From Candidatus Latescibacterota bacterium (GTDB lineage Bacteria > Latescibacterota > UBA2968 > GCA-2709665): 64,000 nt of DNA. The notes under the pieces are model-generated. The model was not told where the DNA came from. It saw only the letters and a program-made list of their open reading frames with translations, and did no database searches. The position numbers were made by a program, and so were the translations under genes. Shown here in pieces: positions 1 to 62,709 of this stretch. The first letter of the stretch is position 1. Every line of letters begins with the position of its first letter. Where the stretch lies: positions 2,336,001-2,400,000 of the forward strand of contig OZ244744.1 in assembly GCA_965219455.1 (NCBI GenBank), in the 5' to 3' direction.

Positions 1-1032
1 CACCCCGACGGTCGTGTCTCAGGCGGCCCGATGTATTACCTGGAAAACGGCCTCAAATTAAAGGGCATGCGGCAATTCGGCCGCACCCTGGCCGTGATGT
101 TCGCCTTTCTGACCGTGGGCGGAAGCCTCGGCGGCGGCAACATGTTTCAGGCCAATCAGACGCTGGAAATACTGGGTACCGTTTCGCCGGTCTTCAAGAC
201 CTACAACTGGTTGGTCGGCATCCTGCTCGCCGTTATGGTCGCCGTCGTGATTGTCGGCGGCATCCGGCGAATCGGCCGCGTCACGTCCCGGGTGGTGCCC
301 ACAATGTGCCTGTTGTACGTGGCAACCTGCCTTCTGATTATCGTTTCCAACTTTACCCGGATTCCGGAATTGCTGGGCACCATCTTCAGCCAGGCCTTTT
401 CGCCGCAGGCGCTCTATGGCGGCTTCGTGGGTGTGATGGTAACCGGCATCAAACGCGCCGCCTTCTCGAACGAGGCCGGCCTCGGATCCGCTGCGTTCGC
501 GCACGCCGCCGCCAAAACCGACGAACCCGCCCGGGAGGGCATGGTGGCCATGATCGGACCCTTTATTGACACAGTCATCATCTGCCTGATGACGGGCCTT
601 GTCTGTCTGATCACGGGCGTCTACGCAGACCCTCAATTCCTCGGCCAGGCCCAGCAGGGTCAACCGGTCGGCGCCGCGATGACAGCCGCGGCTTTCGAAA
701 CCTTCATTCCCGGCGCCCGCCATGTACTCGCAATCGCCGTCGTGCTCTTTGCCTATTCCACCATGATATCCTGGTCCTATTACGGCGAGCGTGCCTGGGA
801 GTATCTTTTCGGAGAGGGGACGATCCTTGCGTACCGCGTTATCTTCGTCGTTTTTGTCTTCCTGGGCGCCGTTACCGCCCTGGACAACGTGCTCAGCTTC
901 ACGGACATGATGATCCTTGGAATGGCCTTCCCCAACATCATCGGCGGCGTGATCCTGAGCCCACAGATCAAAGCCACCCTCAACGAATACTGGAACCGCC
1001 TGAAGTCCGGCCAGATGACCATGTACAAGTAA
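1..1032 (+). CDS. Alanine/glycine:cation symporter (AGCS family), 5' end outside window
   Basis: Frame open from base 1 (HPDGRVSGGPMYY). AGCS motifs GGPMYY, GGGNMFQAN, FSNEAGLGS, PFIDT, STMISWSYYG and MAFPN; hydrophobic helices. Confidence 0.93.
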   Translation, partial: HPDGRVSGGPMYYLENGLKLKGMRQFGRTLAVMFAFLTVGGSLGGGNMFQANQTLEILGTVSPVFKTYNWLVGILLAVMVAVVIVGGIRRIGRVTSRVVPTMCLLYVATCLLIIVSNFTRIPELLGTIFSQAFSPQALYGGFVGVMVTGIKRAAFSNEAGLGSAAFAHAAAKTDEPAREGMVAMIGPFIDTVIICLMTGLVCLITGVYADPQFLGQAQQGQPVGAAMTAAAFETFIPGARHVLAIAVVLFAYSTMISWSYYGERAWEYLFGEGTILAYRVIFVVFVFLGAVTALDNVLSFTDMMILGMAFPNIIGGVILSPQIKATLNEYWNRLKSGQMTMYK

Positions 1033-1051
1033 CCGAAACCGAAAACAGCCG

Positions 1052-1094
1052 AAATAAAGGGGCGCTGCAATTTCGCAGCGCCCCTCTTTTATTT
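1052..1094. terminator. Intrinsic terminator, probably bidirectional
   Basis: AGGGGCGCTGC-aatttc-GCAGCGCCCCT hairpin with A- and T-rich flanks, about 20 bp after the stop codon. Confidence 0.8.
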
Positions 1095-1159
1095 AAGGGC
1101 ATCACCTTTTTGCGAGTAACAACACCGGGATCTCGCGTTTCGCTACCTGCGAAATAGAA

Positions 1160-1431
1160 TCTCCTCCACCCCCATAACGTCCCCTATTCCCTTGCCCTTT
1201 TTCTTTCTCGCCAAAGAAAAAGGGCCAAAAAGAACGGCGCCGCTCGGCGCGGGGCCGGTTTTTCCACGAATCCCCTCAGTGGCATAGACGGGTGACTGTG
1301 CCCTGCGTACAAATCCGACCCCGCGATGCTTCTATGCAGGACGGAATAACGTGGAAAAACCCCCCGCTCCTCCACCGGAAGGTCGTGAGGTAGACCTGGA
1401 AGGACGGCCGCCTCGATTTGCATTCGAACCG
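1160..1431 (+). repeat. Structured dispersed element, subtype A (copy A1)
   Basis: A/T-tract hairpin, then CAAAAAGAACGGCGCCGCTCGGCGCGGGGCC, then a stem enclosing conserved boxes. Homologous to copies at ~30150, ~40075, ~60653 and ~62337. Ends approximate. Confidence 0.85.
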
Positions 1432-1471
1432 CCGATCGCCGATAGATTTCGCCAGGCCATATCGCTCGCTC

Positions 1472-1714
1472 TCAGATATCCATTCGGTTATCGAACGCGA
1501 CGTCTCCCGCGAGCACTCCCAGAGCAGAGCGCGCTATTCCGTTCCCCAGCGAACTCCGATATCCACCTTCGCTTGCAGGGCAGTGCATTACGTGCGTCCC
1601 CTGAGGGTATTCGCGCTGTGCATTTGGCAGGCCCCGCGCCCAGCGGCGACTTTTGGTTCCTTTTGGTCGCTTCAAAAGGAACACGCCGTAGGCAGGGAAT
1701 TTGGAGAAAGGTGG
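1472..1714 (-). repeat. Structured dispersed element, subtype B (copy B1), tail-to-tail with A1
   Basis: Reverse complement matches GTTCCTTTTG-N7-CAAAAGGAACCAAAAGTCGCCGCT.GGCGCGGGGCC copies at ~52981, ~58898, ~60280 and ~61903. Confidence 0.85.
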
Positions 1715-1815
1715 TTCTTAAATTTGGTTTTGATCCTTCATTGTCCTTCCCCGCCGGAGGCGTGGAGCCGGGGGGAGAGGTCTCGCCTTAAGCTGAAAGC
1801 TGATAGCTAATTCCG

Positions 1816-2790
1816 CTATACTTCCGCAACGGATACCGGTTCGCCCGTCTCGAGCGAACGGTTCACCGCCACAACCACCTGCTGGGTTTTCACGGCATCC
1901 GAGTACGGACATCGCAGCTTCGATCCATCACCGGTGCGCACCGCCTCAATAAACGCGTTATCCATTTCCTGCCAGTAGTCGTTGCCGACCTCGATATACT
2001 CGGACCGATCCCCCTGCACAACTGTAATGGACTTTCTCTCTCTATACTCAATAGCCATATCCTTCGTGTAGATATCCAGCCCGCCGCGATGCCCACACGA
2101 TAGGAAACACGCTGAAAAAATCGTCGCCAGCGTTCCGTTCTCGAAAATCAACGTGGCCGCACTCGCGTCTTCAATATCGTAATCCTCCACGTCCGTTATC
2201 AACCCCGTACGGCCCCCGGCATACACCGTTTTCACGTCGCCGAACAAATACCTGGCCATATCCGTCACGTGAACCGTCTGCTCGACGGCCTGCCCGCCGG
2301 ACATCTGCTTCCGCCGCCACCAGTACGTGCCCGGCAGCCCGCCCATCCAATACCCGATGGCCAGCCCAACCGGGCGGCTTGCAAGCAGACCCTGCGTCTT
2401 TTCGATAATGTCCAGGTACCGACCCTGGAAGCCCACGCAAGAGATCACGCCGTGTTCCCGAATGGCCGCGTCCGCTTCCCGCGCCGTATCCATGTGAAGG
2501 GCGATCGGCTTCTCCACAAACAGCGCGATCCCCTTTTCCGCGGCCAGTATTTCCTGCGTCTCGTGCGCAAAGGGAGGGATGCAGATATATACCGCATCCA
2601 ACGCCACTTCGTTCAACATGGACCTGTAGTCCGTAAATACCCTGGCATCCCATTCCGCCGCCGCATCGGCGGCCTTCGCCTCATCCACGTCGCAAATGGC
2701 CACCACCGTCGCGTCATCGTTGTGCTTCAAATGCCGGCGATGCGCACGTGAGATATTCCCCGCGCCTATAAAACCGACTTTCACCGTCAT
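1816..2790 (-). CDS. Gfo/Idh/MocA family oxidoreductase
   Basis: MTVKVGFIGAGNI Rossmann motif, FVEKP, GGQAVEQTVHVTD. Start trimmed to ATG 2790. Confidence 0.92.
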   Translation of the reverse strand: MTVKVGFIGAGNISRAHRRHLKHNDDATVVAICDVDEAKAADAAAEWDARVFTDYRSMLNEVALDAVYICIPPFAHETQEILAAEKGIALFVEKPIALHMDTAREADAAIREHGVISCVGFQGRYLDIIEKTQGLLASRPVGLAIGYWMGGLPGTYWWRRKQMSGGQAVEQTVHVTDMARYLFGDVKTVYAGGRTGLITDVEDYDIEDASAATLIFENGTLATIFSACFLSCGHRGGLDIYTKDMAIEYRERKSITVVQGDRSEYIEVGNDYWQEMDNAFIEAVRTGDGSKLRCPYSDAVKTQQVVVAVNRSLETGEPVSVAEV

Positions 2791-2826
2791 CCGCAGATCC
2801 TCTACAGAAAACGAACCCTGCCGCAA

Positions 2827-2883
2827 GTGTCCCGTCCCAGAAACATATTACCATTCAGGCAATCTATTTCCGGGACAGAACAC
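2827..2883. mobile_element. 57-bp palindromic mini-element (GTGTYCYGTCCCAGAAA...TTTCNGKGACAGAACAC)
   Basis: Imperfect 17-bp terminal inverted repeats. Further copies at 5698-5753 and 28355-28464. Confidence 0.7.
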
Positions 2884-2899
2884 GAGGACCGTCCGGCTT

Positions 2900-5674
2900 C
2901 TATTTCAACTCTTCCTTCAGCGCCCTGATCGTCTCCTCCAGCGCTTTCATCTCCTTTCCCGCCTGCTCCCAGTCCCACTGCTGAAACGCCGAACGCACGC
3001 GGGAATAGTGCGCGTCCGCTTTCGCCGCCAGTTCGGCCGCCGAACGGCCTGTCTGCAAGGCAACGGAAGACGCCGGCGTTTCCTCCTCACTTGCGGCCAT
3101 GGCGATGCCGGATCCCCCGCCGAACAGGACGGTCAGCGCCTCATCGAACGTTTTCCGCATCACCACCCGTCCACCGAAAGCGACAATCACCTGCTTCAAC
3201 TCCGGAATCGCCGAACTGCGTTCCTGCTGGCGCCTCGGCGGGGGCTGGCCCCCGGGTATGCCTTCCTCCTGCCCGTACCCCTGCTGTTCGGGCTCCTGCC
3301 TCGCTTGCAGATAGATGGGTTCGACATAGATGAACGACCGCTCCACCGGAATGGCCAGGAGGTTCCCCCGGATCACCTCCGACCCCCGCTGCCCCCACAA
3401 CGTCAACTGGCTGGAGATCTCCGGCTGCTGGTCCACCCGGGCCTCGATCTGCATCGGGCCGTAGATCAGCTTGTCTTTGGGCAGTTTGTACACCAGCAGA
3501 TGCCCGTAGTTTTCTCCGTCCGACCGCGCGGCGAGCCACGCAATCATATTGTCTCTCTTTGCCGGGGTAAACGGCACCATCAGCAGAAACTCCTCCCGGT
3601 CCTCTCCCGGCAGCTTGACGATAATATAGTAAGGCAGCATCGGCTGTGGCTGGTCGCTGTAGATCTCGTTGGGGACCTCCCAGAGATCCTCCTGGTTGAA
3701 AAAGACGTTGACGTCTTCCATATGGTAATTCCGGTACATAACCGCCTGTCGGAAAAACAGGTCGATCGGATACCTCACGTGCGCCTTCAAATCTTCCGGC
3801 ATGGCGGACATCGGCTGGAACAGTCCCGGAAACATCTCGCCGTAGGATCGAATCAGCGGGTCTTCCGTATCCACCTGGTAGAACGTGACCGTGCCGTTGT
3901 AGGCATCGACCACCACCTTCACCGAGTTCCTGATATAGTTGATCCGCATCCGCCCCGAGCGCGTCGAGTACGGATACATATCCGAAATCGTGTACGCGTC
4001 CTGAATCCAGAAAAGCCTTCCTTCGGAAGCCACGATATAGGGATCGGTATCGTACAGGAGAAATGGAACCAGCGTCTGAACCCGCTCCCGAATCTGCCGG
4101 CGGAACATGATGCGGCTTTCGGGCGATATGTAACCGCTCAACAGAAGGCTGACGTCCCAGAATCGAAAGGCAAACGCCAACCGATTGAAGAAGCTGCCCG
4201 TGGGCACGCCGCCCAGTCCCTCATACGTCGAATACCGGTTATCGTCTCCCTTCGGGTAGTCGAATTCCTCAATCCCCGTCTTTACCACCACGTAAGCGTA
4301 TGTTCTCTCTCCGTAATAAATCTCGGGCTGCTCGATCTCCAGCCCCGAATCCGCAATCGGCGGGATATCCTTTACCATAAACGCCGGCAGACCCTCGGAG
4401 GTCACGTGGTTGACCGGGCTCATTGCCACCCCGTATCCGTGGGTATACTGAAGGCGCTCGTTGACCCAGTTCCTCGCCTGGTCCGGCAAACGGTTGGTAT
4501 CCAGTTCCCGGGCGGACAACATCACCTGCCGGTAAACGCCATCCACCGTGTATCGATCCACGTCCACATTCGGAAATACGTAGTACGGCCGAATCTCCTG
4601 CACCTGCTGGTAAGTCTGTTTCAGGGGGCGCTCATCCCAGATCCGGATATTGCGCATCGTCAGCGGATTGGCGCGAATATCCTCCAGCGTCAGGTCTTCC
4701 GAAGCTTCAAAAGGCTGTTCGACGATTCGATCCAGCCCGTATGCCCGATTGGTCGCCTCGATATTATATTTGATATACGGACCTTCCCTGCGAAGTTCAC
4801 TCGGCTCCACCACCAGTTTCTGGACCAGGGTGGAGGGGACCGCCCCCACGACGATTGTGCCGACGACCAGAACGCCGATACCCTTGAGCGGCAACCGGGT
4901 GTTGCGCGCTCTGAAGTTAAGAAACAGAAAGACCGCCGTCGCCAGGAAAACAATCACCATCACCCAGTAAGCCCAGATCTGGACGTTGACATCCACGTAA
5001 CCGGCTCCGAAAAACCGTCCCTGCGAATACAGCAAGCCGAATATTTTAAGCCGGTACTTCCAGGCCAGCGCCAGAAGAAACACCCCGCCCAGGGCCGACA
5101 GATGAGCCATGGGCCGTTCCTTCACCTCGAGACCCTCCCGGATTCCAATACCGCCCGCCGCCACGTATACCACCACCACCACCAGCGTCGCCAGCACCAG
5201 CGCCGCAATCAGAAACCCGGACAGAAAATCGTAAAACGGGAGCAGGAATACATAAAACCCCACCTCCCGATTGAAAATCGGGTCCGCGGCCCCGAACGGC
5301 TGTTCGTAGATGTACCGCAATAGAACCGGCCACTGGCTTGCGCCGATGTTGCCCAGGATAAACACCAAAACGCCCGCGATTAACACATAGGTTTTCCTGG
5401 ACTGCAACACGCCAGCGGGTACGCCGTCAAGCTGCAATGCATGCCGCGTAACCCGTCCGGCAATCCACAGGTTCACCCCCACCACGACCGCCGCAATCGC
5501 TCCGAAAATCATACCCGACCCGAAGCGGGCGCGAACGATACGCCAGAACACCGAATCGTACTCCAGACTCCTGAACCATAGCCAATCCGTATAGTACGAC
5601 ACCAGAAAACTGATTCCGAAAAACCCGCCAACCAGCACGGCAAGAATAACCCACCCCTTCGGACGCCGATCCAT
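2900..5674 (-). CDS. UPF0182 family membrane protein
   Basis: YTDWLWF, DPIF.R.VGFYVF.LP, DVDRY, RLQYTHGYG, NYIRNSVKVVVDAY.G, YGPMQIE and GNLL motifs. RBS AAGGAG before ATG 5674. Confidence 0.95.
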   Translation of the reverse strand: MDRRPKGWVILAVLVGGFFGISFLVSYYTDWLWFRSLEYDSVFWRIVRARFGSGMIFGAIAAVVVGVNLWIAGRVTRHALQLDGVPAGVLQSRKTYVLIAGVLVFILGNIGASQWPVLLRYIYEQPFGAADPIFNREVGFYVFLLPFYDFLSGFLIAALVLATLVVVVVYVAAGGIGIREGLEVKERPMAHLSALGGVFLLALAWKYRLKIFGLLYSQGRFFGAGYVDVNVQIWAYWVMVIVFLATAVFLFLNFRARNTRLPLKGIGVLVVGTIVVGAVPSTLVQKLVVEPSELRREGPYIKYNIEATNRAYGLDRIVEQPFEASEDLTLEDIRANPLTMRNIRIWDERPLKQTYQQVQEIRPYYVFPNVDVDRYTVDGVYRQVMLSARELDTNRLPDQARNWVNERLQYTHGYGVAMSPVNHVTSEGLPAFMVKDIPPIADSGLEIEQPEIYYGERTYAYVVVKTGIEEFDYPKGDDNRYSTYEGLGGVPTGSFFNRLAFAFRFWDVSLLLSGYISPESRIMFRRQIRERVQTLVPFLLYDTDPYIVASEGRLFWIQDAYTISDMYPYSTRSGRMRINYIRNSVKVVVDAYNGTVTFYQVDTEDPLIRSYGEMFPGLFQPMSAMPEDLKAHVRYPIDLFFRQAVMYRNYHMEDVNVFFNQEDLWEVPNEIYSDQPQPMLPYYIIVKLPGEDREEFLLMVPFTPAKRDNMIAWLAARSDGENYGHLLVYKLPKDKLIYGPMQIEARVDQQPEISSQLTLWGQRGSEVIRGNLLAIPVERSFIYVEPIYLQARQEPEQQGYGQEEGIPGGQPPPRRQQERSSAIPELKQVIVAFGGRVVMRKTFDEALTVLFGGGSGIAMAASEEETPASSVALQTGRSAAELAAKADAHYSRVRSAFQQWDWEQAGKEMKALEETIRALKEELK

Positions 5675-26548: not shown

Positions 26549-27328
26549 TCAGCGATACGGCTTGATCACGGGCAGAATCTCTTTTTCGGTAACGACGCGA
26601 TACCTGCGTTTGTCCGGACCGGACCGGTCGAAAACCACGGCCTCAACCGTGGACGATTTCAACTCGGCCTTCAAAATACCCTGCAGATCCGCCTCGTCGG
26701 CCACCCGTTCCAACTCCGACGTCTCCTGGGGGATCTCGTCCAGGTCTCCCACAAACCGCCCGGCCGCCCATACCTCCAGTGCGGCCTTCAACGCGTTCCG
26801 CAGGCTGAGCCGGTCGGTTTCCGGCAGATAGCGCCGCATCAACCCGTCCGCTTCCGGAATATCGCCCACAACGCCGCGGCCTTCGTGTTTCTGAAACGCG
26901 CCGTCGTAGTCCACCGTATAGAAGACGGCGCCTTCCTCCGATACATCCAGCTCCAGCATCAGGATCCGCACGATATACGGCGACCGGAACACCTCGTCAA
27001 AAGCCGTCTTGACCGCGGGACCCAGGCCGAAATGTATTATCTGCTGCAGGTTTACGTCCTGCTCCGAATAGTTGAACCCGATCACCGACGCCAGGTCCAC
27101 GGCGGACTGGCGCAGCTTCTCGATATCGGCGGGATGCCCGAGCGCGGCCATGCCGATACGGTCGTAAACCTCGAAGATCTTCTGTTGTCCCCGGCCCAGC
27201 GTCAAAAGCAGCGCGCCGTCCCGGTAGGTCAGGCCCACAACCGGGCTGCCGCCCCGCAGCTGGTCCTCGATATACTCCCGCCGGTTGGCTACCGCCTCCG
27301 CCCAGCGATAGGGTTCGTCCAGCATCAT
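26549..27328 (-). CDS. prcA: 20S proteasome alpha subunit
   Basis: EPYRW....RREYI...L..GSPVV and KIFEVYDRIGMAALG motifs; overlaps the prcB stop codon. Confidence 0.88.
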   Translation of the reverse strand: MMLDEPYRWAEAVANRREYIEDQLRGGSPVVGLTYRDGALLLTLGRGQQKIFEVYDRIGMAALGHPADIEKLRQSAVDLASVIGFNYSEQDVNLQQIIHFGLGPAVKTAFDEVFRSPYIVRILMLELDVSEEGAVFYTVDYDGAFQKHEGRGVVGDIPEADGLMRRYLPETDRLSLRNALKAALEVWAAGRFVGDLDEIPQETSELERVADEADLQGILKAELKSSTVEAVVFDRSGPDKRRYRVVTEKEILPVIKPYR

Positions 27329-28143
27329 CCCTCAGTGTCTCCAGGCCCTTCAGCTTGAGCGAAATACCGCTCGTAGGACGCCCGCAGATCCTCCTCGGAC
27401 ACGGTACGCAGTCCATCCGCCGAGATCGTTTTCACCGTGGGCAACACCCCGGTATCACGCTCGTATCTTCCGGTGGCGGCGTCGTATTCCGCGGCCGTAT
27501 GCAGCAGGCGCAGCGCCATTCCAATGCTCTCGTTACAGTCCAGTTCGGCAAACGGACGCTCGCCCCACTGGTTGTTGTAGTACATTGCGCCCCGTATGGC
27601 CGCTGCGCCGGAACCCGTGGTGGAAAAATCGGCGCTCTCGAACTGCGCGCCCAGCACGTCGTAGAAAAAGATCTTGCCGCGGCTGTCCTGTCGATCGTAC
27701 GTGGCGAAAATGGGGATCACCGGGCCGATGCCCTGCATGGCCATCGGCAGATTGTCGCGAATCAGAAGGGAGAGGCGCCGCAGTTTGGCCGCCAGGCTCA
27801 TTTCCTGCAACTGCCGGCGCCGGTGATATTGAAACGTGTGTTCAAGAATACGGGCGATTTCGTACGCCATCGCCGGCGATCCGGAAATGGCCATCACCGA
27901 ATACGCGTCGATATCGATGACCTTGTCGGCGCGGTCGTAGAGCACCGTATGGCCGGCGGTCGCCCGGCGGTCGCCCGCTACGAGGACGCCATCCCGGTAG
28001 CGAAGCGCGAGGATGGTCGTGCCTTCGGTGGGCTGAAACGGAAGGGACGCCGCGCCGCCCGGCGCACTTTCCCGCAGGTCGGCGCCGGGCATCCGGTATC
28101 CTTCGGCCTTCAGCAGATCCAGAAAATCTCCACCCGCACCCAT
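27325..28143 (-). CDS. prcB: 20S proteasome beta subunit
   Basis: Propeptide, then G|TTILALRYRDGVLVAGDRRAT; TGSG and DAATG. Start at ATG 28143, just after ubact. Confidence 0.93.
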   Translation of the reverse strand: MGAGGDFLDLLKAEGYRMPGADLRESAPGGAASLPFQPTEGTTILALRYRDGVLVAGDRRATAGHTVLYDRADKVIDIDAYSVMAISGSPAMAYEIARILEHTFQYHRRRQLQEMSLAAKLRRLSLLIRDNLPMAMQGIGPVIPIFATYDRQDSRGKIFFYDVLGAQFESADFSTTGSGAAAIRGAMYYNNQWGERPFAELDCNESIGMALRLLHTAAEYDAATGRYERDTGVLPTVKTISADGLRTVSEEDLRASYERYFAQAEGPGDTEG

Positions 28144-28147
28144 AGGC

Positions 28148-28339
28148 TCACTCACCCGTACGCTGGCGGTAACGTCGCGCCTGATTCGGGTCCACGCGCC
28201 GCATGCGGCGCAGCAGATCCTGGGTATCGGGACGGTCAACGTCCGGTCGGGACGGTCCCTCGTCTCCGTCGTTCGGCGCCCCGTCGGGGGGCTCCGACCG
28301 TCGGGTTCGCCGTTCAAAACCGGCCAGGTCTTTTTTCAT
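28148..28339 (-). CDS. ubact: Ubiquitin-like protein UBact (63 aa)
   Basis: Disordered N-terminus and C-terminal LLRRMRRVDPNQARRYRQRTGE, the R[TS]G[EQ] UBact signature. RBS AAGGAGGAG; lies between dop and prcB. Confidence 0.92.
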   Translation of the reverse strand: MKKDLAGFERRTRRSEPPDGAPNDGDEGPSRPDVDRPDTQDLLRRMRRVDPNQARRYRQRTGE

Positions 28340-28354
28340 AGCCAACTCCTCCTT

Positions 28355-28464
28355 GTGTCCCGTCCCAGAAATATTTCACCATTCATCCGCCGATTCATCC
28401 CGTCTCGCTGTGTTGCCCTCGCTCGGCGGCCGAATTCAGTCAATCTATTTCAGGGACAGAACAT
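28355..28464. mobile_element. 110-bp version of the GTGT..GTCCCAGAAA mini-element
   Basis: Same ends as 2827-2883 and 5698-5753 plus ~54 bp of extra interior; abuts the ubact RBS. Confidence 0.65.
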
Positions 28465-28537
28465 TCGAATCCGTTCAAGAATGCCCGCAGGTTCTCCCGA
28501 ACGGTTAAGCTGCACGCTTCGCCAACGCGACCGGCGG

Positions 28538-30058
28538 TCAGGCCTCGAGCGCGTTCAGGAACTCCTCCAGTTCATCCGATCGATCCAGCACCCTATTATA
28601 ATACGCGACCTTCTCCCCATCAACCAGATCCTTCATATCCACGGAACGCTGTTCCCCGTTCCGGGAGAAAACAATCCGGTCCCAGTTGACCGATTTGACG
28701 TCGTGGCCGAATTTCTCCAGGCATCGTCCGCGAAAATACGCCCGCGTGTCCGTGGGCGGAACGGACATCGCCTCCACGATTCGCTCGTCGTCCAGAAGCC
28801 GCACCATTTTGCCCTGGTCTTCCAGCAGAAAATAGAGTCCGGCCTCCCGATCCACGTTGTGGTACTCCAGATCCTGGCTCTGAAGCCACGACAGGTCCTC
28901 CGGATTGTCCCAGGAAAGTCCCTCCGCCTCGCAAAAACAATCCAGCAACCACTTCTTGCTTACCCAGTCGCAGGTGCCAACCATCGCCATGGGATCCCGT
29001 TCCAGGCCTGCAAGAATCTCCTCCCAGGCGTTCAGGACCCAGTCCGTTTCCACGTCCAGGCCTCCGAACCGCTCTCGCGCCCGCGCCAGGTACATCCGCT
29101 GCACGTCTACGGCCGGTACCAGCCGGTTGCTCTTGCGATCCAGTTCCACCAACCACTGATAACTCTGGTCGCGCGATACGTTCTTCAACGCCGCAATCGG
29201 ATCCTTCAAGACCACGTCGGGCAGATCATCCTGTTCAACCAGCGCCACCACCAGGGCCATCGCGCCCACTTTCAGCGCCGTGACGTATTCCGACATGTTC
29301 GCGTCGCCGAGAATCACGTGGAGCCTGCGGTAGCGGGCCGCGTCGGCGTGGGGTTCGTCGCGGGTATTGATGAGCGGCCGTTTGTGCATGGTGTCGACGC
29401 TGGCGATCACCTCGAAGAATTCGGACCGCTGCGAGAGTTGATAGATGGATGCCCTGTCGCCGCGTTCCACGCCCATCTTGCCCGCGCCCGCGTATATCTG
29501 CCGCGTAACCAGAAAGGGCAGGAGGCCCGTCACGATTCGTTCGAACGGGGTCTCACGGTCCATCAGATAATTCTCGTGACACCCGTAGCTATGGCCTTCG
29601 AAATCGGTGTTGTTCTTGTAGATCCGGACCTCGCCCTCGGGCAGCATCTCCGTTCGCCGTTGGGCGCAGATGTCGACGATCCGCTCGCCCGCGCGGTCCT
29701 GCGCGACCAGCTCGAAGAGGCTCAGACACTCGCCCGTTGAGTATTCCGGATGGGTATGGTCGTTGTAAAAGCGGGCGCCGTTGCGGATAATCAGGTCGCT
29801 CTTCAATTCCCCGAGCGGCACCTTTCGCTGACGATCCTTCTGGAGGTGTACCTTCTCGTCCGTATCGTTCAGCAGGGAATTCACTTCAAACCCCCGCACA
29901 TCCTTGCGGGGGTTCTCCAGCTGATAGTCCCACAGAGGCGTAAATTCACCCTGGAGATAGCACCGGATCAGTTGCATCGACTCTTCCACCACGTCGATCC
30001 CGTCCACTCCGTCTATCGTGATTCCGTACTCCGTTTCCAGACCGAAAAGTCGATTCAT
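28538..30058 (-). CDS. dop: Dop/PafA2-family deconjugase/deamidase
   Basis: GLETEYGI, WDY..ENP.KD.RGF (Dop loop), NGARFYNDHTHPEYST, YKNNTD..GHSYGCHENY and PPTDTRAYFRG motifs. Confidence 0.9.
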   Translation of the reverse strand: MNRLFGLETEYGITIDGVDGIDVVEESMQLIRCYLQGEFTPLWDYQLENPRKDVRGFEVNSLLNDTDEKVHLQKDRQRKVPLGELKSDLIIRNGARFYNDHTHPEYSTGECLSLFELVAQDRAGERIVDICAQRRTEMLPEGEVRIYKNNTDFEGHSYGCHENYLMDRETPFERIVTGLLPFLVTRQIYAGAGKMGVERGDRASIYQLSQRSEFFEVIASVDTMHKRPLINTRDEPHADAARYRRLHVILGDANMSEYVTALKVGAMALVVALVEQDDLPDVVLKDPIAALKNVSRDQSYQWLVELDRKSNRLVPAVDVQRMYLARARERFGGLDVETDWVLNAWEEILAGLERDPMAMVGTCDWVSKKWLLDCFCEAEGLSWDNPEDLSWLQSQDLEYHNVDREAGLYFLLEDQGKMVRLLDDERIVEAMSVPPTDTRAYFRGRCLEKFGHDVKSVNWDRIVFSRNGEQRSVDMKDLVDGEKVAYYNRVLDRSDELEEFLNALEA

Positions 30059-30108
30059 GGGCTCTGCTCAGTTCTTGATCTCAGGGAAAGGCAAATACCG
30101 CGGTTCGC

Positions 30109-30138
30109 TACGCGTGGATACGCGTGGATACGCGTGAA
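30109..30138. repeat. 10-bp tandem repeat (TACGCGTGGA)x~3
   Basis: Directly visible in the sequence. Confidence 0.7.
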
Positions 30139-30149
30139 ATGGAGTCTAC

Positions 30150-30420
30150 CCCTCCCACTAACGTCCCCTTTTCCCTTGCCCTTTTTCTTGCTTCGCCCAA
30201 GAAAAAGGGCGAAAAAGAAGGGCGCCGCTCAGACGCCGCGGGGCTGCTTTTCCGCGAATCGCCTCAGTGTGAAAGCGACGTCAGGTGGCCTACAGGGATC
30301 GCAGGTTTCACCGAGTCGAAATGCTAAACGGATAAGCGCGGAAAAGCCCCTTCCCTACAACCGTGCGCTTGAAAAGACCTCGCGAGATTCGGTACCATAG
30401 AAAAGCTGTACGATAAAGCG
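30150..30420 (+). repeat. Structured element subtype A (copy A2), between arc and dop
   Basis: Head hairpin, GCTTTTCCGCG...CGCGGAAAAGC stem and conserved boxes. Confidence 0.8.
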
Positions 30421-30757
30421 CCGAATCTGCCCCCACTCCGCCACCGGTCGCGCCGTCGTTGTTTTTGTAGGGGCGACTTTCAAAGTCGCCCACGTCACGG
30501 CGTTGACAATTGACATCACAAGGCCCTATCGCTAACCGGTTTTAGCTGACAGCTTACGGCTGATAGCTCTTTCCGAGGGGGCCGGGGGGAGAGGTCCCGC
30601 GACCGCGGCTATCGTGGATCGATTTCGCCAGTCCGTATCGCTCACTGCATTTTGCTTTTTGTTTCAAGCTGATTGCTGAAAGCTGACGGCTGACAGCTTT
30701 TTCTGAGGGGGCCGGGGGGAGAGGTCCGGCTCTTAGCTGACAGCTGACACCGGAACG

Positions 30758-32479
30758 CTAAACAGTACGACTGCCCCGCCGGGTCATCTTCCGTCCGGGG
30801 CGAATCGGCGACGCCCGCACGACGTTTTCCGGATCGTAATCGAGCAACTTCAGCCAGTCTTCCGTGTTATCCGTCGGCGGAAAAATCTCGTTTTCCGTAT
30901 ACTCGGTCTCGACGGCCTGGAGCAGATCGTCCCGGGAAATGCCCTCTTCCTCTCCCGACGCGATGGACCGCCGGATGGCCATCTCCTTTGCCCGTCTCAC
31001 AATCGATTCCATGATCGCCCCACTGGCCAGGTCCCCCCATCGGAGAACGTCCTTCCGGCCGCTTCGCAGGGTCACTTCGAGAAATCGTGTATGGCCCTTT
31101 CGGGAAAAAATCTCTTCCGCCGTGCAGGCAACGAGCGACTCCACGGCCCCTGAGGCGTCGCCCCCGTGTTGTTCAAGCGTCTTCCGGTCGATTGGCAGAC
31201 CGGGCGCCAGATAGATCTTAAGGATATCGAGGGCGCCCTCCCGGTCCGGGCGCTTTACCTTTATTTTTCTGTCGATTCTTCCCGGCCGCAATATGGCGGG
31301 ATCGATCAGGTCGGGCCGGTTGGACGCCAGAATGATCACCACGTCCTGCAGCGACTCGATGCCGTCCATCTCCGAGCAGAACATCGGCACCACCGTATTG
31401 GAAATGCTGTGCGACCGCATCGCCCGGCGCGTACCGAGAACCGACTCCGCCTCGTCGATGAATACCACCGGCAGGCAGCCCTCTTTCCGCTTCTCCCGCG
31501 CCCGGGAAAAAATCTCGCGAACCTGGCGTTCGGACTCGCCCAGCCACATATTCAGAATTTCCGGCCCTTTGATATTCATGAAACATTCTTTCAGGTTCAG
31601 ACCGGCCTTCTGCTGTGCCTGCTTAACGAGGTTGTAGGCGGTTGCCTTGCCGATGAGCGTCTTGCCGCAGCCCGGCGGGCCGTACAACAGGAACCCCTTG
31701 GGTACGCTGTATTGGAACCTGGAGAACAGATCCGGATGCAAGGCCGGCATCTCGATCGTATCTTTAATGGCCTGGATGGCCTCCTCCTGGCCGCCGATTT
31801 TATCCCAGGGCAGATATGGAATCTCTTCGAGGTAATAGTCTTTCGCCTCTTTTTCGGGCATCCGTTCCAGCGCCACGCGGAAATTCGGATCCACGCGAAC
31901 CTCGTCGCCCGCCTTCAGAGACGCCGGTATCAGGTCGCTCGAGCGGGAAAGTACGGTGACCTGACCCCCCGGCTCCTGGCCGACCCGCAGCCGGCCGTCT
32001 TCGAGCACGTCGGAGATCTTCGCCACCTGACCGGAAGACGAATGGCCCAGGTCGCCGACGATTGCAAACGCGTCGTTAACCAGCACCCTCGTGCCCACCT
32101 TCAACGCCTGCTGGTCCAGCCGGGAATCGACATTGGCGTAATATTCCGACCCGCCCACGCTGATATAGGCCACACCGTCGCGGGGGGACTCCAGAAGCGT
32201 GCCCACGCGGTTGGCCGGCGCCGTCACCTTCTCGAGCGCGGCCTCCATCTCCACGATGGTCCGCCTCGCCTCCTCGAACGTAATCTCGTCTTCCTGAAGC
32301 TGTCGCCGGAGATGGTAAAGCATGGGCCGCCGTTTGTCCTTTTCGTCCATGGACATCAATATCTGGTCGATAATGGACAGCGAGCGGAACGTGTGCTGCA
32401 TATCCACGTAGTCCTGCAGAAAGTCATCCGGCGACTCTTGCTGGCGATTTGCGTCGTTAGGGCGGCTAATGGCGCTCAC
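30758..32479 (-). CDS. arc: Proteasome-associated AAA+ ATPase (ARC/Mpa family)
   Basis: N-terminal coiled coil and OB region; IGG, GPPGCGKT, IKGPEILNMWLGESE, FIDEAE, SNRPDLIDPAILRPGR and SGA motifs. GTG start with GGAG RBS. Confidence 0.93.
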   Translation of the reverse strand: MSAISRPNDANRQQESPDDFLQDYVDMQHTFRSLSIIDQILMSMDEKDKRRPMLYHLRRQLQEDEITFEEARRTIVEMEAALEKVTAPANRVGTLLESPRDGVAYISVGGSEYYANVDSRLDQQALKVGTRVLVNDAFAIVGDLGHSSSGQVAKISDVLEDGRLRVGQEPGGQVTVLSRSSDLIPASLKAGDEVRVDPNFRVALERMPEKEAKDYYLEEIPYLPWDKIGGQEEAIQAIKDTIEMPALHPDLFSRFQYSVPKGFLLYGPPGCGKTLIGKATAYNLVKQAQQKAGLNLKECFMNIKGPEILNMWLGESERQVREIFSRAREKRKEGCLPVVFIDEAESVLGTRRAMRSHSISNTVVPMFCSEMDGIESLQDVVIILASNRPDLIDPAILRPGRIDRKIKVKRPDREGALDILKIYLAPGLPIDRKTLEQHGGDASGAVESLVACTAEEIFSRKGHTRFLEVTLRSGRKDVLRWGDLASGAIMESIVRRAKEMAIRRSIASGEEEGISRDDLLQAVETEYTENEIFPPTDNTEDWLKLLDYDPENVVRASPIRPGRKMTRRGSRTV

Positions 32480-33517: not shown

Positions 33518-33541
33518 GGCTCCCCCGACTGTGATTAAAGT

Positions 33542-39927: not shown

Positions 39928-40074
39928 TTCATTACCCTCCTCCTCGTCTCCAGAGTCTTTTTGCCCGTTAAGGAGCCGAAACCGGTTAATCCTTTAACGA
40001 ATCTGACGGGGTTCCGTTCCGTGTTCGAGGTGATTTTTCCTACCGGAAGGCGGTAGTCTTTGCGTAACATAGAA

Positions 40075-40345
40075 TCTCCCCCTCCCCCTAACGTCCCTTA
40101 TTCCCATGTCCTTTTTGTTGTACGCCCAAGAAAAAGGACCAAAAAGAACGGCGCCGTTCGGCACCTGTCTGCGTGCGGACACGCACAGGCAGGCGGGGCC
40201 GGTGGGGAAACGCCTTAGAGGAGCAGACCAACTTCAGTGCCCTACGAACGCTTGCGGAATTCCTCGGCGATGGTGCTGGACGGATCAGCGCGGAAAAACC
40301 CCCCACGCCACCACCGGTCGCACGAGGGCGGCACGCATGATAAGG
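40075..40345 (+). repeat. Structured element subtype A (copy A3) carrying a nested 30-bp mini-hairpin
   Basis: Head and conserved boxes as in A1; insertion at 40164-40193. Confidence 0.8.
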
Positions 40346-40544
40346 CGAGACCTACCCCCTATCCCTCTTCCTGAAGGAGGGCGGAACGGCGATGGGCCAA
40401 TGTACTGGCCTTCCGAAAGTGCCGAGATCGCGTTCTCCTATCAATCAGAGCGTACATGAAGCACCGCTAACCCTCCCCCTCTCCCTGTGGGAGAGGGGGA
40501 GGGGGGGTGGGGGTCTTGGGGCCGGGGGGAGAGGTCCCGCGCCG

Positions 40545-42081: not shown

Positions 42082-42200
42082 CGGGATTCTCCTTCTCTCG
42101 GTGTGGGTTTCGCTCCAGAATCTTGAATAAATGCTCGCTCCAAAAGGTTTACGCTAAATAGGTATGGGAGGGCCCGAATCGGACCATCCCATACGCCAGT

Positions 42201-42612: not shown

Positions 42613-42647
42613 GGCGGTTTACCATATATACCTCTATGCCGCCGCTA

Positions 42648-52189: not shown

Positions 52190-53410
52190 ACAGCTATCAG
52201 CCGTCAGCCGTCAGCTTGAAACGAGAAGGCGAAACCGAAGACCAAAATGCATAAAACAGCAAGAACGACAAACAGCTCACACCAAGGCACAGCGAGACCT
52301 CTCCCCCCAGCCCCCTCTCCTAAAGGAAAGGGGGGGGAAGTCCAAATCAGAAAAAACAGTGATCAGTGGTCAGCGGTCAGCTTGAAGCAAATCAAAAACC
52401 GAAAACCAATAAGCATAACGCAGCAATAACAACAATCAGCTCACACCAAGGCACAGCGAGACCTCTCCCCCCAGCCCCCTCTCCTAAAGGAAAGGGGGAG
52501 AAAGTCCAAATCAGGAAAAACAGTGGTCAGTGGTCAGTGGTCAGTGGTCAGCGGTCAGCGGTCAGCTTAAAGCAAATCAAAAACCGAAGACCAATAGGCA
52601 TAACGTCAATCAGCTCACACAAAGGCACAGCGAGACCTCTCCCCCCGGCCCCCTCGGACAAAGCTATCTGCTTTCAGCCGTTAGCTGTCAGCTAAAAACG
52701 AAATGCAAAACGCAGATTGCGATATGGACTGGCGAAGTCAATTCACAGATACCTGGTTTTTGTAGGGGCGACCGGCCGGTCGCCCTCGAATCGGGAAAAC
52801 AGCAGTCGGCAGGAAACGAGAAGCAAAAAGCGAAAACCAATAAGCATAATGCAGGAAAAATGACAATCGGCTCACACAAAGGCACAAAGGGAAAGGCAGC
52901 GATCAGCGGTCAGTTGTCCGCCGTCAGCCAAAAGGCGTTAGCGATACGGACCGGCGATGTCAATTCCATTTGTTCTTACCACTTCTCCCCATATTCCCTG
53001 CCTGCGGCGCGTTCCTTTTGACACGACCAAAAGGAACCAAAAGTCGCCGCTAGGCGCGGGGCCGTCCATATGCACAGCGCGAATTGCCTCACGGGTTGCA
53101 CCGGAACTACTGCCCTGCCAACCACGGAGAAACATCGGTCCTCGGCGATGAACGGAACCGCACGCTCTGCTCTGCGAGTCCTCTCGAAAGGCATTTTGAG
53201 CGTATCTACATTGGTCTTCCGTTTGCGAGGAGCAGTCACCTAAAACCGGTTAGCGATATGGCCTGGCGATGCCAATTCACAGATACCTGGTTTTTGTAGG
53301 GGCGGTTCTTTTGGGTCCTTTTTCGCAAATAAGAAAAAGGACGTAAAAATAAAAAAAACAATAAGAAAGTAGGAAAATGACCTTACCGACCCGGAGCGCG
53401 ACCCATCAAC
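52190..53410. repeat. Mosaic repeat region: ~170-bp tandem units, (CAGYGGT)n heptamers, a REP-like hairpin, element B2 (52981-53222) and a truncated A head (53303-53345)
   Basis: Modules recur at 30540-30750, 58555-59380, 60020-60640 and 61730-62330. Confidence 0.85.
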
Positions 53411-58554: not shown

Positions 58555-59380
58555 AAATCAGCTATCAGCGGTCAGGAAAAACAGCTATCAGCGGTCAGCC
58601 GTTAGCTGTCAGCTTGAAGCAAAACCAAAAGGCGGGACCTCTCCCCCCGGCCCCCTCGGACAGAGCTATCAGCGGTCAGCCGTTAGCTGTCAGCTAAAAA
58701 CGAAAAGCAAAACGCAGATTGCCATACGGCCTGGCGATATCGATTCGCGGATGCCTGGTTTTTTGTAGGGGCGACCGGCCGGTCGCCCTTGTTTCGGGAA
58801 AACAGCAGTCAGCAGGGAAAACGACAATCAGCTCACACAAAGGCACAAAGGGAAAGGCAGCGGTCAGTTAGAAGGAAAAGGCAAATTCAACATTCACATC
58901 TCCCCATATTCCCTGCCTGCGGCGCGTTCCTTTTGACACGACCAAAAGGAACCAAAAGTCGCCGCTAGGCGCGGGGCCGTCCATATGCATAGCGCGAATT
59001 GCCTCACGGGTTGCACATGATCCTCTGCCCTGCCAACCACGGAGGAACATCGGTCCTCCGCGCTGGACGGAAACGCACGCTCTGCTCTGAGAGTCCTCTC
59101 GAAAGGCAATTCGAGCGTATCTACATTGGTTTTCCGTTTGCGAGGAGCTGTCACCTAAAACCGGTTTGCCATACGGCCTGGCGATGTCAATTCGCGGATG
59201 CCTGGTTTTCGTAGGGGCGACCGGCCGGTCGCCCTTGTTTCGGGAAAACAGCAGTCAGCAGGGAAAACGACAATCAGCTCACACAAAGGCACAAAGGGAA
59301 AGGCAGCGGCGGAGACCGCTCCCCCCGGCCCCAAGGCCCTCACCCCCCGGCCCCCTCGCCCACGGGGAGAGGGGGAGGAG
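58555..59380. repeat. Mosaic repeat region including element B3 (58898-59137)
   Basis: Long similarity to 52636-53305; internal ~145-bp duplication (about 58720-58862 versus 59166-59308). Confidence 0.85.
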
Positions 59381-59963: not shown

Positions 59964-60279
59964 GGTGGTTCCCTTTCGTTCGGAGCGGTGGCTACGTGGC
60001 CTTATACAATAATATATGAAGAACAGCTATCAGTAGTCAGCGATCAGCCGTCAGCTTGAAGCAAAAGGCGAAAACCTAATTCAACATCTACTTCTCCCCA
60101 AATTCCCTGCCTTCGGCGAGAATAGCGATCAGCTTGAAACGAGAAGCTAAAAGCGAAAACCAATAAACATAAAGCTGGAAAAACGATAATCAACTCACAC
60201 AAAGACACAAAGGGAAAAGCAGCTATCAGCGGTCAGCCATCCGCTTGAAGCAAAAGGCGAAAACCAAATTCAACATCTA

Positions 60280-60895
60280 CTTCTCCCCAATTTCCCTGCC
60301 TTCGGCGAGTTCCTTTTGACGCGACCAAAAGGAACCAAAAGTCGCCGCTAGGCGCGGGGCCGTCGATATGCATAGCGCGAATTGCCGCACGGGATGCACA
60401 GGATCCTCTGCCCTGCCAGCAACGGTGGAACAAGAGGTCCTCGGCGCTGAACGGAACCGCGCGCTCTGCTCTGGTAGCCCTTTGGTCAGGTTTCGCCTCC
60501 ATCGATCCAATGGTTACCGGATTAAAAGGGCAGCCATCAGCTATCAGCTTGAAACGAGAAGCAAAAAGCGAAAACCAATAAACATAAAGCTGGAAAAACG
60601 ATAATCAACTCACACAAAGACACAAAGGGAAAAGCAGCAATTGCTGAAAGTGCGGTACGACGCCAAACCACGTGGCGGTCCTATCCGATCAATTTCTCAC
60701 CCGAACGGTGGAGAATTTGGGGGGTTTTGCCGCGTCGATCCATTCAGCAATGTCGTGTGGCCTATCATCCTCAATCCGCAGGGCACAAGTGCTTGTTTCT
60801 TCCCCTGAGGCGATTCGCGGAAAAACCGGCCCCGTGCCGAACGGCGCGGTTCTTTTTGGTCCTTTTTCTTACGCGAATAAGAAAAAGGACGTAAA
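60280..60895. repeat. Tail-to-tail pair B4 (+, 60280-60521) and A5 (-, 60653-60895)
   Basis: Homology to A1/B1. Confidence 0.85.
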
Positions 60896-61065
60896 AATAA
60901 AAAAAACAATAAGAAAGTAGGAAAATGACCTTACAGACCCGGAGCGCGACCCATTATTCGCCTTTCCCCGTTAGCTGCCTGTTAGCAAGAATCCGGATGC
61001 GGAAGTGTCATATGACAAAGTTACCGTCACCTCTTGCCTCTTGCTTCCAGCGTCTCCCCCCTCTA

Positions 61066-61720: not shown

Positions 61721-61902
61721 AATGGGAAACAGCAATCAGCAGTCAGGAAAAGCAGCTATCAGCGGTCAGCGATCAGCTTGAAGCAAAAGCGAGAATCAAA
61801 TTCAACATCCACTTCTCCCCAATTTCCCTGCCTTCGGCGGGAATAGCGATCAGCCGTCAGCGGTCAGCTTGAAGCAAAAGGCGAAAACCAAATTCAACAT
61901 CC

Positions 61903-62582
61903 ACTTCTCCCCAATTTCCCTGCCTTCGGCGAGTTCCTTTTGAAGCGACCAAAAGGAACCAAAAGTCGCCGCTAGGCGCGGGGCCTGCCATATGCATAGC
62001 GCGAATTGCCTCACGGGATGCACATGATACTCTGCCCTACGAACCACGGATGAACATCGGTACCCGGCGATGGACGGAACCGCGCGCTCTGCTTTGATCT
62101 CGCTCTGCAATGGCATCGCGTTTGAAACCTGCGTGGCTTTCTGATAGCAAGATGCAAGCAATCAGCAGTCAGCGGTCAGCTTGAAGCAAAAGCGAGAATC
62201 AAATTCATGACCTCTCCCCCCGGCCCCCTCTCCTAAAGGAAAGGGGGAGGGAAACCGAATATATATTTGGCGGGCAGCAGAAAAGACGAAAATCAGCTAT
62301 CAGTAGTCAGCCATCAGCAAACAGCAAAAATCTAAAACCGGTAACACCGCCAAACCGAGCGGTGGACCTTCCCTGTAAAACTCCCGCCCGTCCGGAGGTG
62401 GAGATGGGGCTTTTCCGCGCCAATCCGTCCATCGCCTGCGCCACGGAACTCTTGAAAAGCACTCAGGCCACGTACACCTTTCACCACCACCGGGGCGATT
62501 CGCGGAAAAGCAGCCCCGCGGCGTTTGAGCGGCGCCGTTCTTTTTGGTCCTTTTTCTTGGCGTACAAGAAAAAGGACGTAAA
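61903..62582. repeat. Tail-to-tail pair B5 (+, 61903-62144) and A6 (-, 62337-62582)
   Basis: Homology to A1/B1. Confidence 0.85.
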
Positions 62583-62709
62583 AAAATAAATATATGACAA
62601 AGAACGAAAGGGAAATGGCCTCACAGACCCGGAGCACAACCCACCATTCGCCTTTACCCGTGTATTTTTTCGCCTCCGACAGGTTGCACCAACAATTCCC
62701 CCGACGAAG

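Follow-up and report, generated by a model that had tools for sequence, protein, structure and literature searches.

Long-lived repeat populations are seldom met inside the genomes of bacteria, and the well-studied case, the REPINs (doublets of repetitive extragenic palindromic (REP) sequences that form hairpins), depends on a known transposase. What a repeated module without such a gene beside it is, and how it spreads, is the question raised by a stretch of 64,000 nucleotides (nt) of Candidatus Latescibacterota bacterium (assembly GCA_965219455.1, contig OZ244744.1, positions 2,336,001-2,400,000), called here the window. A first-pass annotation of the window, made from its letters alone, described about ten copies of a structured non-coding element of two subtypes, A and B, usually paired tail-to-tail, and proposed that they were either the left and right ends of a non-autonomous element or partner RNAs or single-stranded DNA (ssDNA) substrates of an enzyme encoded elsewhere. 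In this work we show that the fold of the modules is maintained by compensatory change, that paired copies are inverted doublets, that the occupied sites turn over and that at least one pair is represented in RNA libraries. We give an even chance to the reading that the modules are a population of non-autonomous elements resembling the REPINs or the bacterial interspersed mosaic elements (BIMEs) and copied in trans through a folded single strand.

Copies in the window and in the genome

All eleven copies named in the annotation were found at their places: five A, five B and one truncated A head (Table 1). The genome, designated G000, is a single contig of 5,844,228 bases with 58.3% G+C, and window positions are genome coordinates minus 2,336,000. 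An nhmmer profile built from the ten full window copies gave, at E<=1e-3, 99 matches in the 5.84 Mb of G000, with full copies scoring E 1e-25 to 1e-45. Separate A and B profiles distinguished the two subtypes cleanly and divided the 81 near full-length matches into 50 A and 31 B. According to a crude gene call (our own caller, based on codon-usage scoring of open reading frames (ORFs) of >=80 amino acids (aa)), 98 of the 99 matches overlap no called gene, i.e. they are intergenic. The copies lie densely at 0.8-3.4 Mb and sparsely in the remaining genome. Only one recent duplicate was detected, with 98.7% identity over 317 nt and unlike flanks.

The core of the element was present as annotated, but the unit is longer than had been noted. 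Homology between copies spans from ~40-60 nt before to ~220-240 nt after the profile start, which together with the 317-nt duplicate sets the unit at about 250-320 nt, and A has a further hairpin.

A fold maintained by compensatory change

The layout shared by all copies was borne out by the alignments: an A/T hairpin, CAAAA, a GC box, a stem arm, a GAAT-box, a TG[CG]CCT box, an ACGGA box and the second stem arm. Read in the orientation of the annotation, a unit consists of a leader, a perfect T-run/A-run hairpin, CAAAA and a small GC hairpin, followed by a long closing stem, which encloses ~95 nt with three conserved unpaired boxes (GAAUYNCCUCA, UG[CG]CCUR and GRACGGA) and variable segments. 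The A leader is either C-rich or T-rich, which defines two A subfamilies. Only in A is the closing stem followed by a further hairpin, with a CCACCGG-type loop, and the B head can be drawn as one long three-level hairpin.

The annotation held that the closing stem covaries, and indeed it occurs in A as CCACG/CGTGG, CCGCG/CGCGG or CCGTG/CACGG, with B having another stem. It is broken in A3, as had also been seen, by a spoiled 5′ arm, and the GC box of this copy has acquired an inserted extra hairpin. When 35 A copies (26 from G000 and 9 from relatives) were analyzed with RNAalifold, 31 pairs were predicted, six of them retained through two-sided changes. In an explicit 35-pair structure of the same copies 96.5% of the 1,225 cells hold standard pairs. 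Two-sided changes were found in 50 cells vs 14.2 +/- 2.7 in shuffled alignments (0 of 500 shuffles reached 50), a comparison to be read with the caveat that related sequences can beat shuffles even without structure. As a second control the partners were slid by 1-3 columns, which left 41-59% of cells paired and at most nine two-sided cells. In sister-family copies the A/T hairpin has varied its outer pairs on both arms together (GCCC/GGGC, GTTCC/GGAAC, CCTAC/GTAGG, GTTAC/GTAAC, CATAC/GTATG, CTTCA/TGAAG and CTTCC/GGAAG), while its inner T/A run is retained. The slid controls and the sister-family copies speak against kinship alone as the source of the covariation signal. The fold maintained by compensatory change thus comprises the A/T-run hairpin, the small GC hairpin and the closing stem round a junction with unpaired boxes.

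Other parts of the fold are less regular. A CAG/CUG helix beside the closing stem pairs in 86% of cells, and inside the closing stem single-copy folds of the remaining sequence disagree with each other. The third hairpin of A, which also covaries, is visible by eye in the alignment (e.g. CACACG/CGUGUG, ACUCA/UGAGU and ACCCG/CGGGU) with a register that shifts between copies, for which reason RNAalifold predicted no pairs for it in the A tails. In B the motif GCC-U-N-C-GGC-G-N′ contains a covarying pair of another kind: N and N′ are Watson-Crick partners in 31/31 copies (T-A 10, A-T 11, C-G 8 and G-C 2), and, judged by eye, in the sister-family copies too. The two bases flank only a three-base loop, and no ordinary helix explains their pairing.

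A and B copies form inverted doublets

All four pairs in the window converge with heads outward. The non-random orientation suspected from them was established genome-wide: 19 of 21 A-B neighbours within 1 kb are tail-to-tail, the remainder being two head-to-head pairs, 46 and 47 nt apart, with no tandem case, as read from the copy table with partial copies included. A further A...B interval, 1,955 nt long, contains a gene. The A-B pairs have in this respect the form of the inverted doublets of REPINs. Four pairs keep only the A head part and one only the A tail part; a full or partial A stands alongside 21 of the 31 full B copies. Solitary copies number 41 A and 11 B, and the solitary A are conserved as well as the paired ones. 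In certain cases homology takes in the entire pair, spacer included (73-78% identity over 579-634 nt).

The idea of partner RNAs that pair with each other was rejected on the duplex energies of their variable windows, which are no more complementary between partners (-23.5) than between non-partners (-23.2; p 0.74). The annotated alternative of RNAs or ssDNA substrates serving an enzyme encoded elsewhere is possible.

The proposal that A and B are left and right ends of one non-autonomous element is supported in part, by the pairs homologous across the spacer. It does not agree with the solitary copies of both subtypes, with homology that generally stops at the unit limits, with a close relative (G011) that has A without B at one site, or with three polymorphic sites at which no clean target duplication was seen. 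A stronger version would see A and B as the termini of either a classical transposon or a system resembling IS200/IS605 or REP/RAYT (RAYT, REP-associated tyrosine transposase), with an autonomous copy encoding an HUH, IS110-type or other transposase and solitary copies as decayed halves. In its favour are the outward heads of the neighbour pairs, the presence of A beside most B copies, the four pairs reduced to an A head, the existence of a RAYT-like 246-aa ORF in the genome and, at one locus (L003), an A...B interval with a gene for a YihY-like membrane protein; this stretch of A, gene and B is unmatched in relatives G008 and G011. On the other hand, no A...B interval in G000 carries a recombinase or a transposase: the long ones contain ORF-less group II introns (two loci), the YihY-like gene or no convincing ORF. 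The 41 solitary A are as well conserved as paired copies, B can be present or missing independently of A at one site, the RAYT-like gene lies far from any copy and is flanked by a different palindrome, Y1_Tnp is not co-distributed with the modules, and IS110 and TnpB gave 0 matches. We regard this explanation as quite improbable.

Occupied sites turn over between species

The annotation called for a comparison of sites in related genomes, and the occupied sites turned over at four loci: all those examined differ between species, in comparisons that are incomplete and did not yield exact ends. At the A2 site the copy of G011 is the same, variable windows included, but for an additional hairpin. 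Two A copies stand there in G008, the copy of G013 is split and differs in its windows, and no A match was obtained in G005. At locus L004 G011 keeps A and ~700 nt of the mosaic that follows it and lacks a ~400-nt block with B, and in G013 the stretch with both A and B is missing. Locus L003 is described above. The B4-A5 pair of the window sits between the genes for ribosomal proteins S6 and L9, and no copy was found within ~1.5 kb of rpsF in 5/5 other genomes, one of them of the same genus. A search of G011 for synteny with the cluster at 50-64 kb of the window returned repeat matches only.

Orthologous copies were compared at the A1-B1 pair and at L004. Between G000 and G011 the A1-B1 pair differs at 6 of 590 aligned sites and by a 76-nt insertion of a REP-like hairpin, and the flanking genes are 90.4% and 87.2% identical at third codon positions. 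At L004 A is 98.9% and the following mosaic 99.5% identical, with 93.7% for the gene and 88% for the 75-nt leader. Selection was considered as the cause of this identity and was rejected as an inference, because a recent recombination tract explains it equally well: the near-identical tract continues over the initial 200 nt of the gene on the right, and like tracts occur inside genes. Identity of the two genomes in window positions 1-3000 and at L004 is patchy at a 100-nt scale, from 0.84 to 1.00, which suggests frequent exchange between species. In an A copy orthologous between G000 and the more distant G013 there are, counted by hand on the alignment, 0 changes in ~85 nt of hairpin and box and ~20 in the 120-nt leader (~17%); the ~240-nt core has about 13 changes, eight of them in the variable windows and uncompensated. 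Either selection or conversion among many identical heads keeps the head in place.

The modules occur in two families of one order

BLAST searches with the A1-B1 pair detected it in 14/14 other genomes of the genus and weakly elsewhere. For a wider survey a covariance model was built from 46 A and B copies (187 positions and only 13 pairs, so that it is largely a sequence profile) and applied to 151 sampled genomes of the phylum, with <=17 candidates scored per genome. Matches were obtained in 52 of the 151 genomes, i.e. in 18/18 of family f1, 27/30 of its sister family f2 and 0/64 of family f3, with a few borderline ones elsewhere. Families f1 and f2 belong to one order, and 45 of their 48 genomes carry the modules. 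When 150 candidates were scored in five f2 genomes, at least 73, 57, 53, 31 and 6 matches were counted, copy numbers in relatives being lower bounds throughout. Both types of closing stem occur in f2, the A-like UUUUCC/GGAAAA and the B-like CACAGCGC/GCGCUGUG, and therefore the A and B subtypes are older than the family split.

Among contig loci confirmed with the profile there were 39 nhmmer matches, all in metagenome-assembled genomes titled Latescibacterota, two titled Gemmatimonadota, or one 'uncultured bacterium'. An exact-pattern scan of genome contigs was discarded, as it returned mostly chance matches in GC-rich genomes. The family was rightly said to be unfamiliar: the 64-kb window has 0 Rfam matches at gathering scores, and between 1080 and 1800 at E<=10 the best sub-threshold hit had 21 bits vs a cut-off of 91, which is chance level. 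Plasmid and phage collections contained no match, and the retrieved portion of the literature on Latescibacter, sponges and repeats describes no such element. Contigs of several relatives end inside modules, so a practical effect of the family is that short-read assemblies break there.

Modules in RNA libraries and the question of strand

Contigs from sponge metatranscriptomes cover the A1-B1 pair in four runs of two studies; the runs containing this stretch are labelled sponge metagenome. In runs X17 and X18, of one study, a single contig of 490 or 508 nt extends from 1238/1243 to 1656/1669 and spans both inner domains and the spacer; the pair is covered to a depth of 22-25, compared with 12-13 for the left gene and 0 over 1801-2800, i.e. 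most of the right gene. In run X15 a 305-nt contig (1292-1596) has a depth of 9.6 vs ~3 for genes. These contigs give no strand, ends or levels, and their ends coincide with the onset of repeated sequence. For X17 and X18, so uneven a depth speaks against simple carry-over of DNA; the stretch without cover between the left gene and the pair is uninformative.

If the modules are transcribed, the 5′-to-3′ direction chosen by the annotation may be antisense to the RNA, and our leaning is towards the reverse complement as the sense strand. This brings in an alternative that we think unlikely, though the most serious of those considered, namely that the modules are multicopy genes for a small structured RNA read from the opposite strand, starting near the 'tail' and ending at a GC hairpin and U tract in the 'head'. 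The tail-to-tail pairs would then be divergent gene pairs, and the copies would serve the host, e.g. as regulatory RNA, protein sponge, or terminator or insulator. The reverse complement folds more stably as RNA in 48/50 A and 27/31 B copies; this could stem from G+T richness alone, the forward strand having 32% C and 24% G. On the reverse strand the GC hairpin is followed by CGTTCTTTTT, which a consensus scan reported as terminator-like, and the CAAAA that supplies the U run has been retained by A, by B and by the sister-family copies. Counting against the RNA-gene reading, the stem of the GC hairpin is only 4-5 pairs long, and a hairpin with a T run behind it is present on the forward strand too. 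In the A1 head the same scan marked terminator-like sites, with 5-pair stems, on either strand. The ends of the X17 and X18 contigs fall at the two predicted terminators, but these are also points where repeats break assembly anyway, and the contigs are strandless.

Orientation along the chromosome was evaluated with an origin and terminus inferred from GC skew and gene-strand bias only. Cumulative GC skew has a minimum at 3.52 Mb and a turning point near 5.4 Mb, and the + strand carries 45%, 65% and 27% of genes in the three resulting segments; arms drawn from these points would be very unequal, ~1.9 and 3.9 Mb. With these switch points, 33/41 solitary A are placed such that their reverse complement is co-directional with the replication fork (binomial p = 1.1e-4), as expressed genes tend to be, and the reverse complement runs along both neighbouring genes in 17/38 cases vs against both in 7/38. 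Further support for RNA genes comes from the unpaired conserved boxes within a covarying stem, which resemble binding sites, and from the head that is unchanged between G000 and G013 next to a leader changed by ~17%. Other properties do not suit genes serving the host: the sites are not conserved even within the genus at four loci, the variable windows gather uncompensated changes between orthologues, departures of the G.U and A.C kinds are balanced, and no conserved promoter was found, the motif TGGAWTTG being present in only 6 of 50 A tails. A TAGAAT-like box before A heads is not retained between orthologues. The outer stem of the B head has two invariant U.G pairs on the forward strand, which likewise speaks against an RNA of one strand. 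A guide function of the variable windows was rejected, because their matches to G000 are no more than those of shuffled windows (44 vs 57 of >=15 nt, and 3 vs 5 at E<0.05).

How the modules may be copied

The REPIN- or BIME-like reading is based on the copy number, the intergenic position, the inverted doublets, persistence with turnover, the compensated fold and the strand bias of solitary copies. According to it A and B would be two old subfamilies of one structured non-coding intergenic family with dozens to ~100 copies per genome, in which individual sites gain and lose copies while the family itself is vertically inherited across the order. Copying would proceed via a single-stranded nucleic acid intermediate, its fold recognised by a factor encoded elsewhere; structural conservation and the link between replication and the orientation of solitary A would both be accounted for in this way. 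The inverted A/B doublet may be one propagating form, an analogue of the REPIN. Operons presumably tolerate the modules within them, where these may serve as terminators or in the form of RNA structures. Mobile-element and RNA-gene readings are not exclusive, as a mobile module may bring along a terminator or an RNA structure which its host tolerates or puts to use.

Copies adjoining a gene for an HUH enzyme, IS110 or TnpB, which the annotation had suggested looking for, are not found in G000. The profiles of IS110 (PF01548) and of the TnpB zinc ribbon (PF07282) gave 0 matches in this genome, and that of Y1_Tnp (PF01797) gave two, both far from any copy. The first is a domain within a 1,220-aa methylase-like ORF (1,910,352-1,914,014) in an apparent defence island, and the second is the RAYT-like 246-aa ORF (about 1,922,900-1,923,700), flanked on both sides by the palindrome CGAGGGCAGGATGCCCTCG. 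The mover is not encoded by an adjacent gene.

Several observations weigh against a REPIN-like population copied in trans. No candidate for the mover was found in G000. Y1_Tnp occurs in 11/18 genomes of f1, 19/30 of f2 and 19/64 of f3, in which no modules were found; it was not found in 7/14 genomes of the genus, nor in G008, G014, G012 or G026, all with many copies (at least 73 in G026). Since Y1_Tnp is not co-distributed with the modules, a Y1 HUH enzyme is unlikely as an obligate partner and as the mover. Only one pair of copies exceeds 92% identity, therefore there was no recent burst. No terminal inverted repeats within the unit and no clean target duplication were seen at the recent duplicate or at the polymorphic sites, the latter complicated by neighbouring repeats. 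The polymorphic sites look like block replacements in a mosaic of repeat families, not like clean insertions; partners in the mosaic are GTAG-type REP-like hairpins, heptamer arrays, G-rich hairpins and TTTGTG repeats. The strand bias is absent from paired A (7/15), solitary B (6/11) and paired B (11/20), and departures from pairing are balanced between A.C and G.U (33 vs 29 in B, 95 vs 79 in A), so there is no sign of selection on one strand. The cover of the A1-B1 pair above that of its neighbouring genes fits an RNA gene too, and the unchanged head fits function in place or gene conversion as well as mobility.

A reverse transcriptase is the enzyme invoked by an alternative that we hold to be very improbable, in which the modules are retro-elements like short interspersed nuclear elements (SINEs), copied through RNA by that of group II introns. 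G000 contains 15 group II intron loci, nine of them full length with an ORF region, and 5/15 lie within 400 nt of a module copy, far above chance, as only 1.6% of the genome is so close; the presence of modules in RNA libraries would agree with an RNA intermediate, and priming at replication forks might be compatible with the orientation bias of solitary A. The closeness can be explained more simply: the heptamer (CAGCNNT)n arrays that often stand beside the modules are the insertion sites of one intron subgroup. The other subgroup sits after TTATCCTGTNTATCCTGTANATCCATG. Modules and introns share no sequence, and no 3′ poly-A or intron-like boundaries were seen. The heptamer arrays end in CAGCTTGAA; often they are located in tails or precede B heads on the upstream side.

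A further alternative, of low probability in our judgement, is a system that belongs to this order and has not been described. The modules would be its structured RNA or ssDNA half, in two cognate types, A and B, predating the family split, and would be recognised by a putative protein through a route unlike those of HUH enzymes, IS110 or TnpB. Each copy would present its own helices on a fixed scaffold; the recognition points would be the invariant unpaired boxes and the covarying pair of GCC-UNC-GGC-GN′ with its four Watson-Crick forms, and the protein would copy or use the modules, e.g. in recombination, defence or gene control.

Comparison with known systems

The REP/BIME/REPIN populations are mobilised by RAYT (PMC3116915, PMC3337134, 10.1101/2021.07.10.451892), and REPIN populations are reported to persist vertically for very long times (PMC3116915, 10.1101/2021.07.10.451892). 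Like them, the modules are intergenic, reach dozens to hundreds of copies, form hairpin-forming inverted doublets of two unit types alternating in orientation, stand inside operons, persist vertically for long with turnover of sites and take part in mosaics with other repeats. BIMEs, too, have unit subtypes, named Y and Z. The REP palindrome measures 20-40 nt, whereas a module is a multi-helix structure of about 250-320 nt with conserved unpaired boxes. The GTAG end of REP sequences is not present in the modules, the GTAGGGGCRAC hairpins being a distinct family in the same genome. In REP-RAYT systems the units flank a single-copy, co-inherited RAYT gene; no RAYT gene flanked by modules was found, and Y1 was not found in many carriers. 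The modules resemble REPINs in how they behave, not through kinship.

The ends of IS200/IS605 and their gene-less derivatives were compared as well (PMC5027513, PMC6006769). Subterminal hairpins and structure kept over sequence are common to them and the modules. Orientation of IS200/IS605 is linked to the direction of replication; among the modules this applies to solitary A only, the other classes being unbiased. TnpA and TnpB act on the IS200/IS605 ends and neither accompanies the modules; the left and right ends are unlike each other, whereas A and B are inverted copies of one long module; and in place of the cleavage tetranucleotide no conserved one, nor exact ends, could be established.

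The Correia, ERIC and BOX repeats are intergenic sequences of 100-300 nt, similar to miniature inverted-repeat transposable elements (MITEs), that are transcribed with their neighbours, foldable and modular. The modules share with them the size class, the intergenic position, transcription along with adjoining genes, the ability to fold and the modular make-up, and differ in being conserved across an order with subtypes older than the family split. A MITE of a DDE transposon has terminal inverted repeats and a target duplication, neither of which was seen here. IS110 bridge RNA and the omega RNA of TnpB or IscB consist of a conserved scaffold of ~150-250 nt with variable internal segments, an arrangement that recurs in the modules. 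G000 is, however, without an IS110 or TnpB match, the variable windows hit no targets beyond chance, and the modules occur as dozens of dispersed copies without a protein gene. The attC sites of integrons are folded single-strand sites between genes with conserved structure and variable sequence. Folded sites between genes are found here as well, including one gene-module-gene run in the window, but the genes flanked are housekeeping ones (S6, L9 and Pup ligase) and the copies are dispersed over the chromosome, both of which count against attC membership. Membership in REP-RAYT, IS200/IS605, IS110, DDE-type MITEs and Rfam families fails in each case at a tested defining feature.

In copy number and in persistence, across two families of an uncultured order, the modules are comparable to REPINs, but their compensated fold is much richer, their two old subtypes are cognate and no mover could be recognised. 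The mover, if found, could represent a new way of copying DNA or RNA. Should the modules prove to be RNA genes, they would be among the largest small-RNA families in a bacterium.

Features of the window and neighbouring sequences

The positions of the modules and of the associated sequences are collected in Table 1.

Table 1 Modules, their parts and associated features (window positions, except for the introns, which are given in G000 coordinates)
Feature	Position	Strand	Remarks
A1 unit	1140..1430	+	profile match 1185-1373
A1 leader	1140-1193	+	
A1 A/T hairpin	1194-1225	+	
A1 CAAAAAG	1226-1232	+	
A1 GC box hairpin	1237-1250	+	
A1 closing stem arms	1257-1268 and 1350-1361	+	
A1 conserved boxes	1269-1279, 1299-1306, 1339-1345	+	
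A1 third hairpin	about 1366-1390	+	
A1-B1 spacer	about 1431-1470		
B1 unit	1471..1741	-	profile match 1521-1696; tail-to-tail with A1
A2 unit	30124..30411	+	profile match 30169-30356; solitary, upstream of Pup-ligase gene
A3 unit	40054..40360	+	profile match 40099-40311; solitary
B2 unit	52952..53223	+	profile match 52997-53173
Truncated A head	53302..53350	-	profile positions 3-55; tail-to-tail, facing B2
B3 unit	58867..59138	+	profile match 58912-59088; solitary
B4 unit	60250..60522	+	profile match 60295-60472; paired with A5
A5 unit	60656..60944	-	profile match 60711-60899; subfamily with T-rich leader
B5 unit	61874..62143	+	profile match 61919-62093; paired with A6
A6 unit	62342..62631	-	profile match 62397-62586
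GCC-U-N-C-GGC-G-N′ motif, B-head example	1676-1690	-	
GCC-U-N-C-GGC-G-N′ motif, B-head example	52999-53012		
Heptamer arrays	52175-52710, 58566-58712, 60008-60262, 61737-61886, 62278-62336 and other places		
ORF-less group II intron (L001)	2,676,102-2,676,815		between tails of an A-B pair (RF02003, RF00029)
ORF-less group II intron (L002)	2,868,071-2,868,769		between tails of an A-B pair (RF02003, RF00029)

A separate family of REP-like hairpins of the type GTAG + GGGC[AG]AC...GT[CT]GCCC is present in the same genome with 120 pattern matches (55 + 65 by strand), a count in which palindromic matches enter twice; 42 of the 120 lie within 400 nt of an A or B copy, often in A tails or pair spacers. 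Examples are the hairpin at 30467-30491 of the window and the insertion of G011 in the A1-B1 spacer near 1436.

The Pup-proteasome gene set occupies positions 26549-32476 and encodes two proteasome subunits, the Pup ligase and the proteasomal ATPase, with A2 inserted between the genes for the last two. The region 40603-58206 encodes several very large secreted-type proteins of 491-1,645 aa with cohesin, FlgD-Ig and Por-secretion-tail domains, which are mutually paralogous and contain internal repeats of ~330 nt. An AT-rich intergenic tandem array at 33493-33786 is made up of a 49-nt unit (GATTAAGGCAAAAATGGACTATGATTAAAATGATTCAAATGATGGCTGG) repeated some five to six times.

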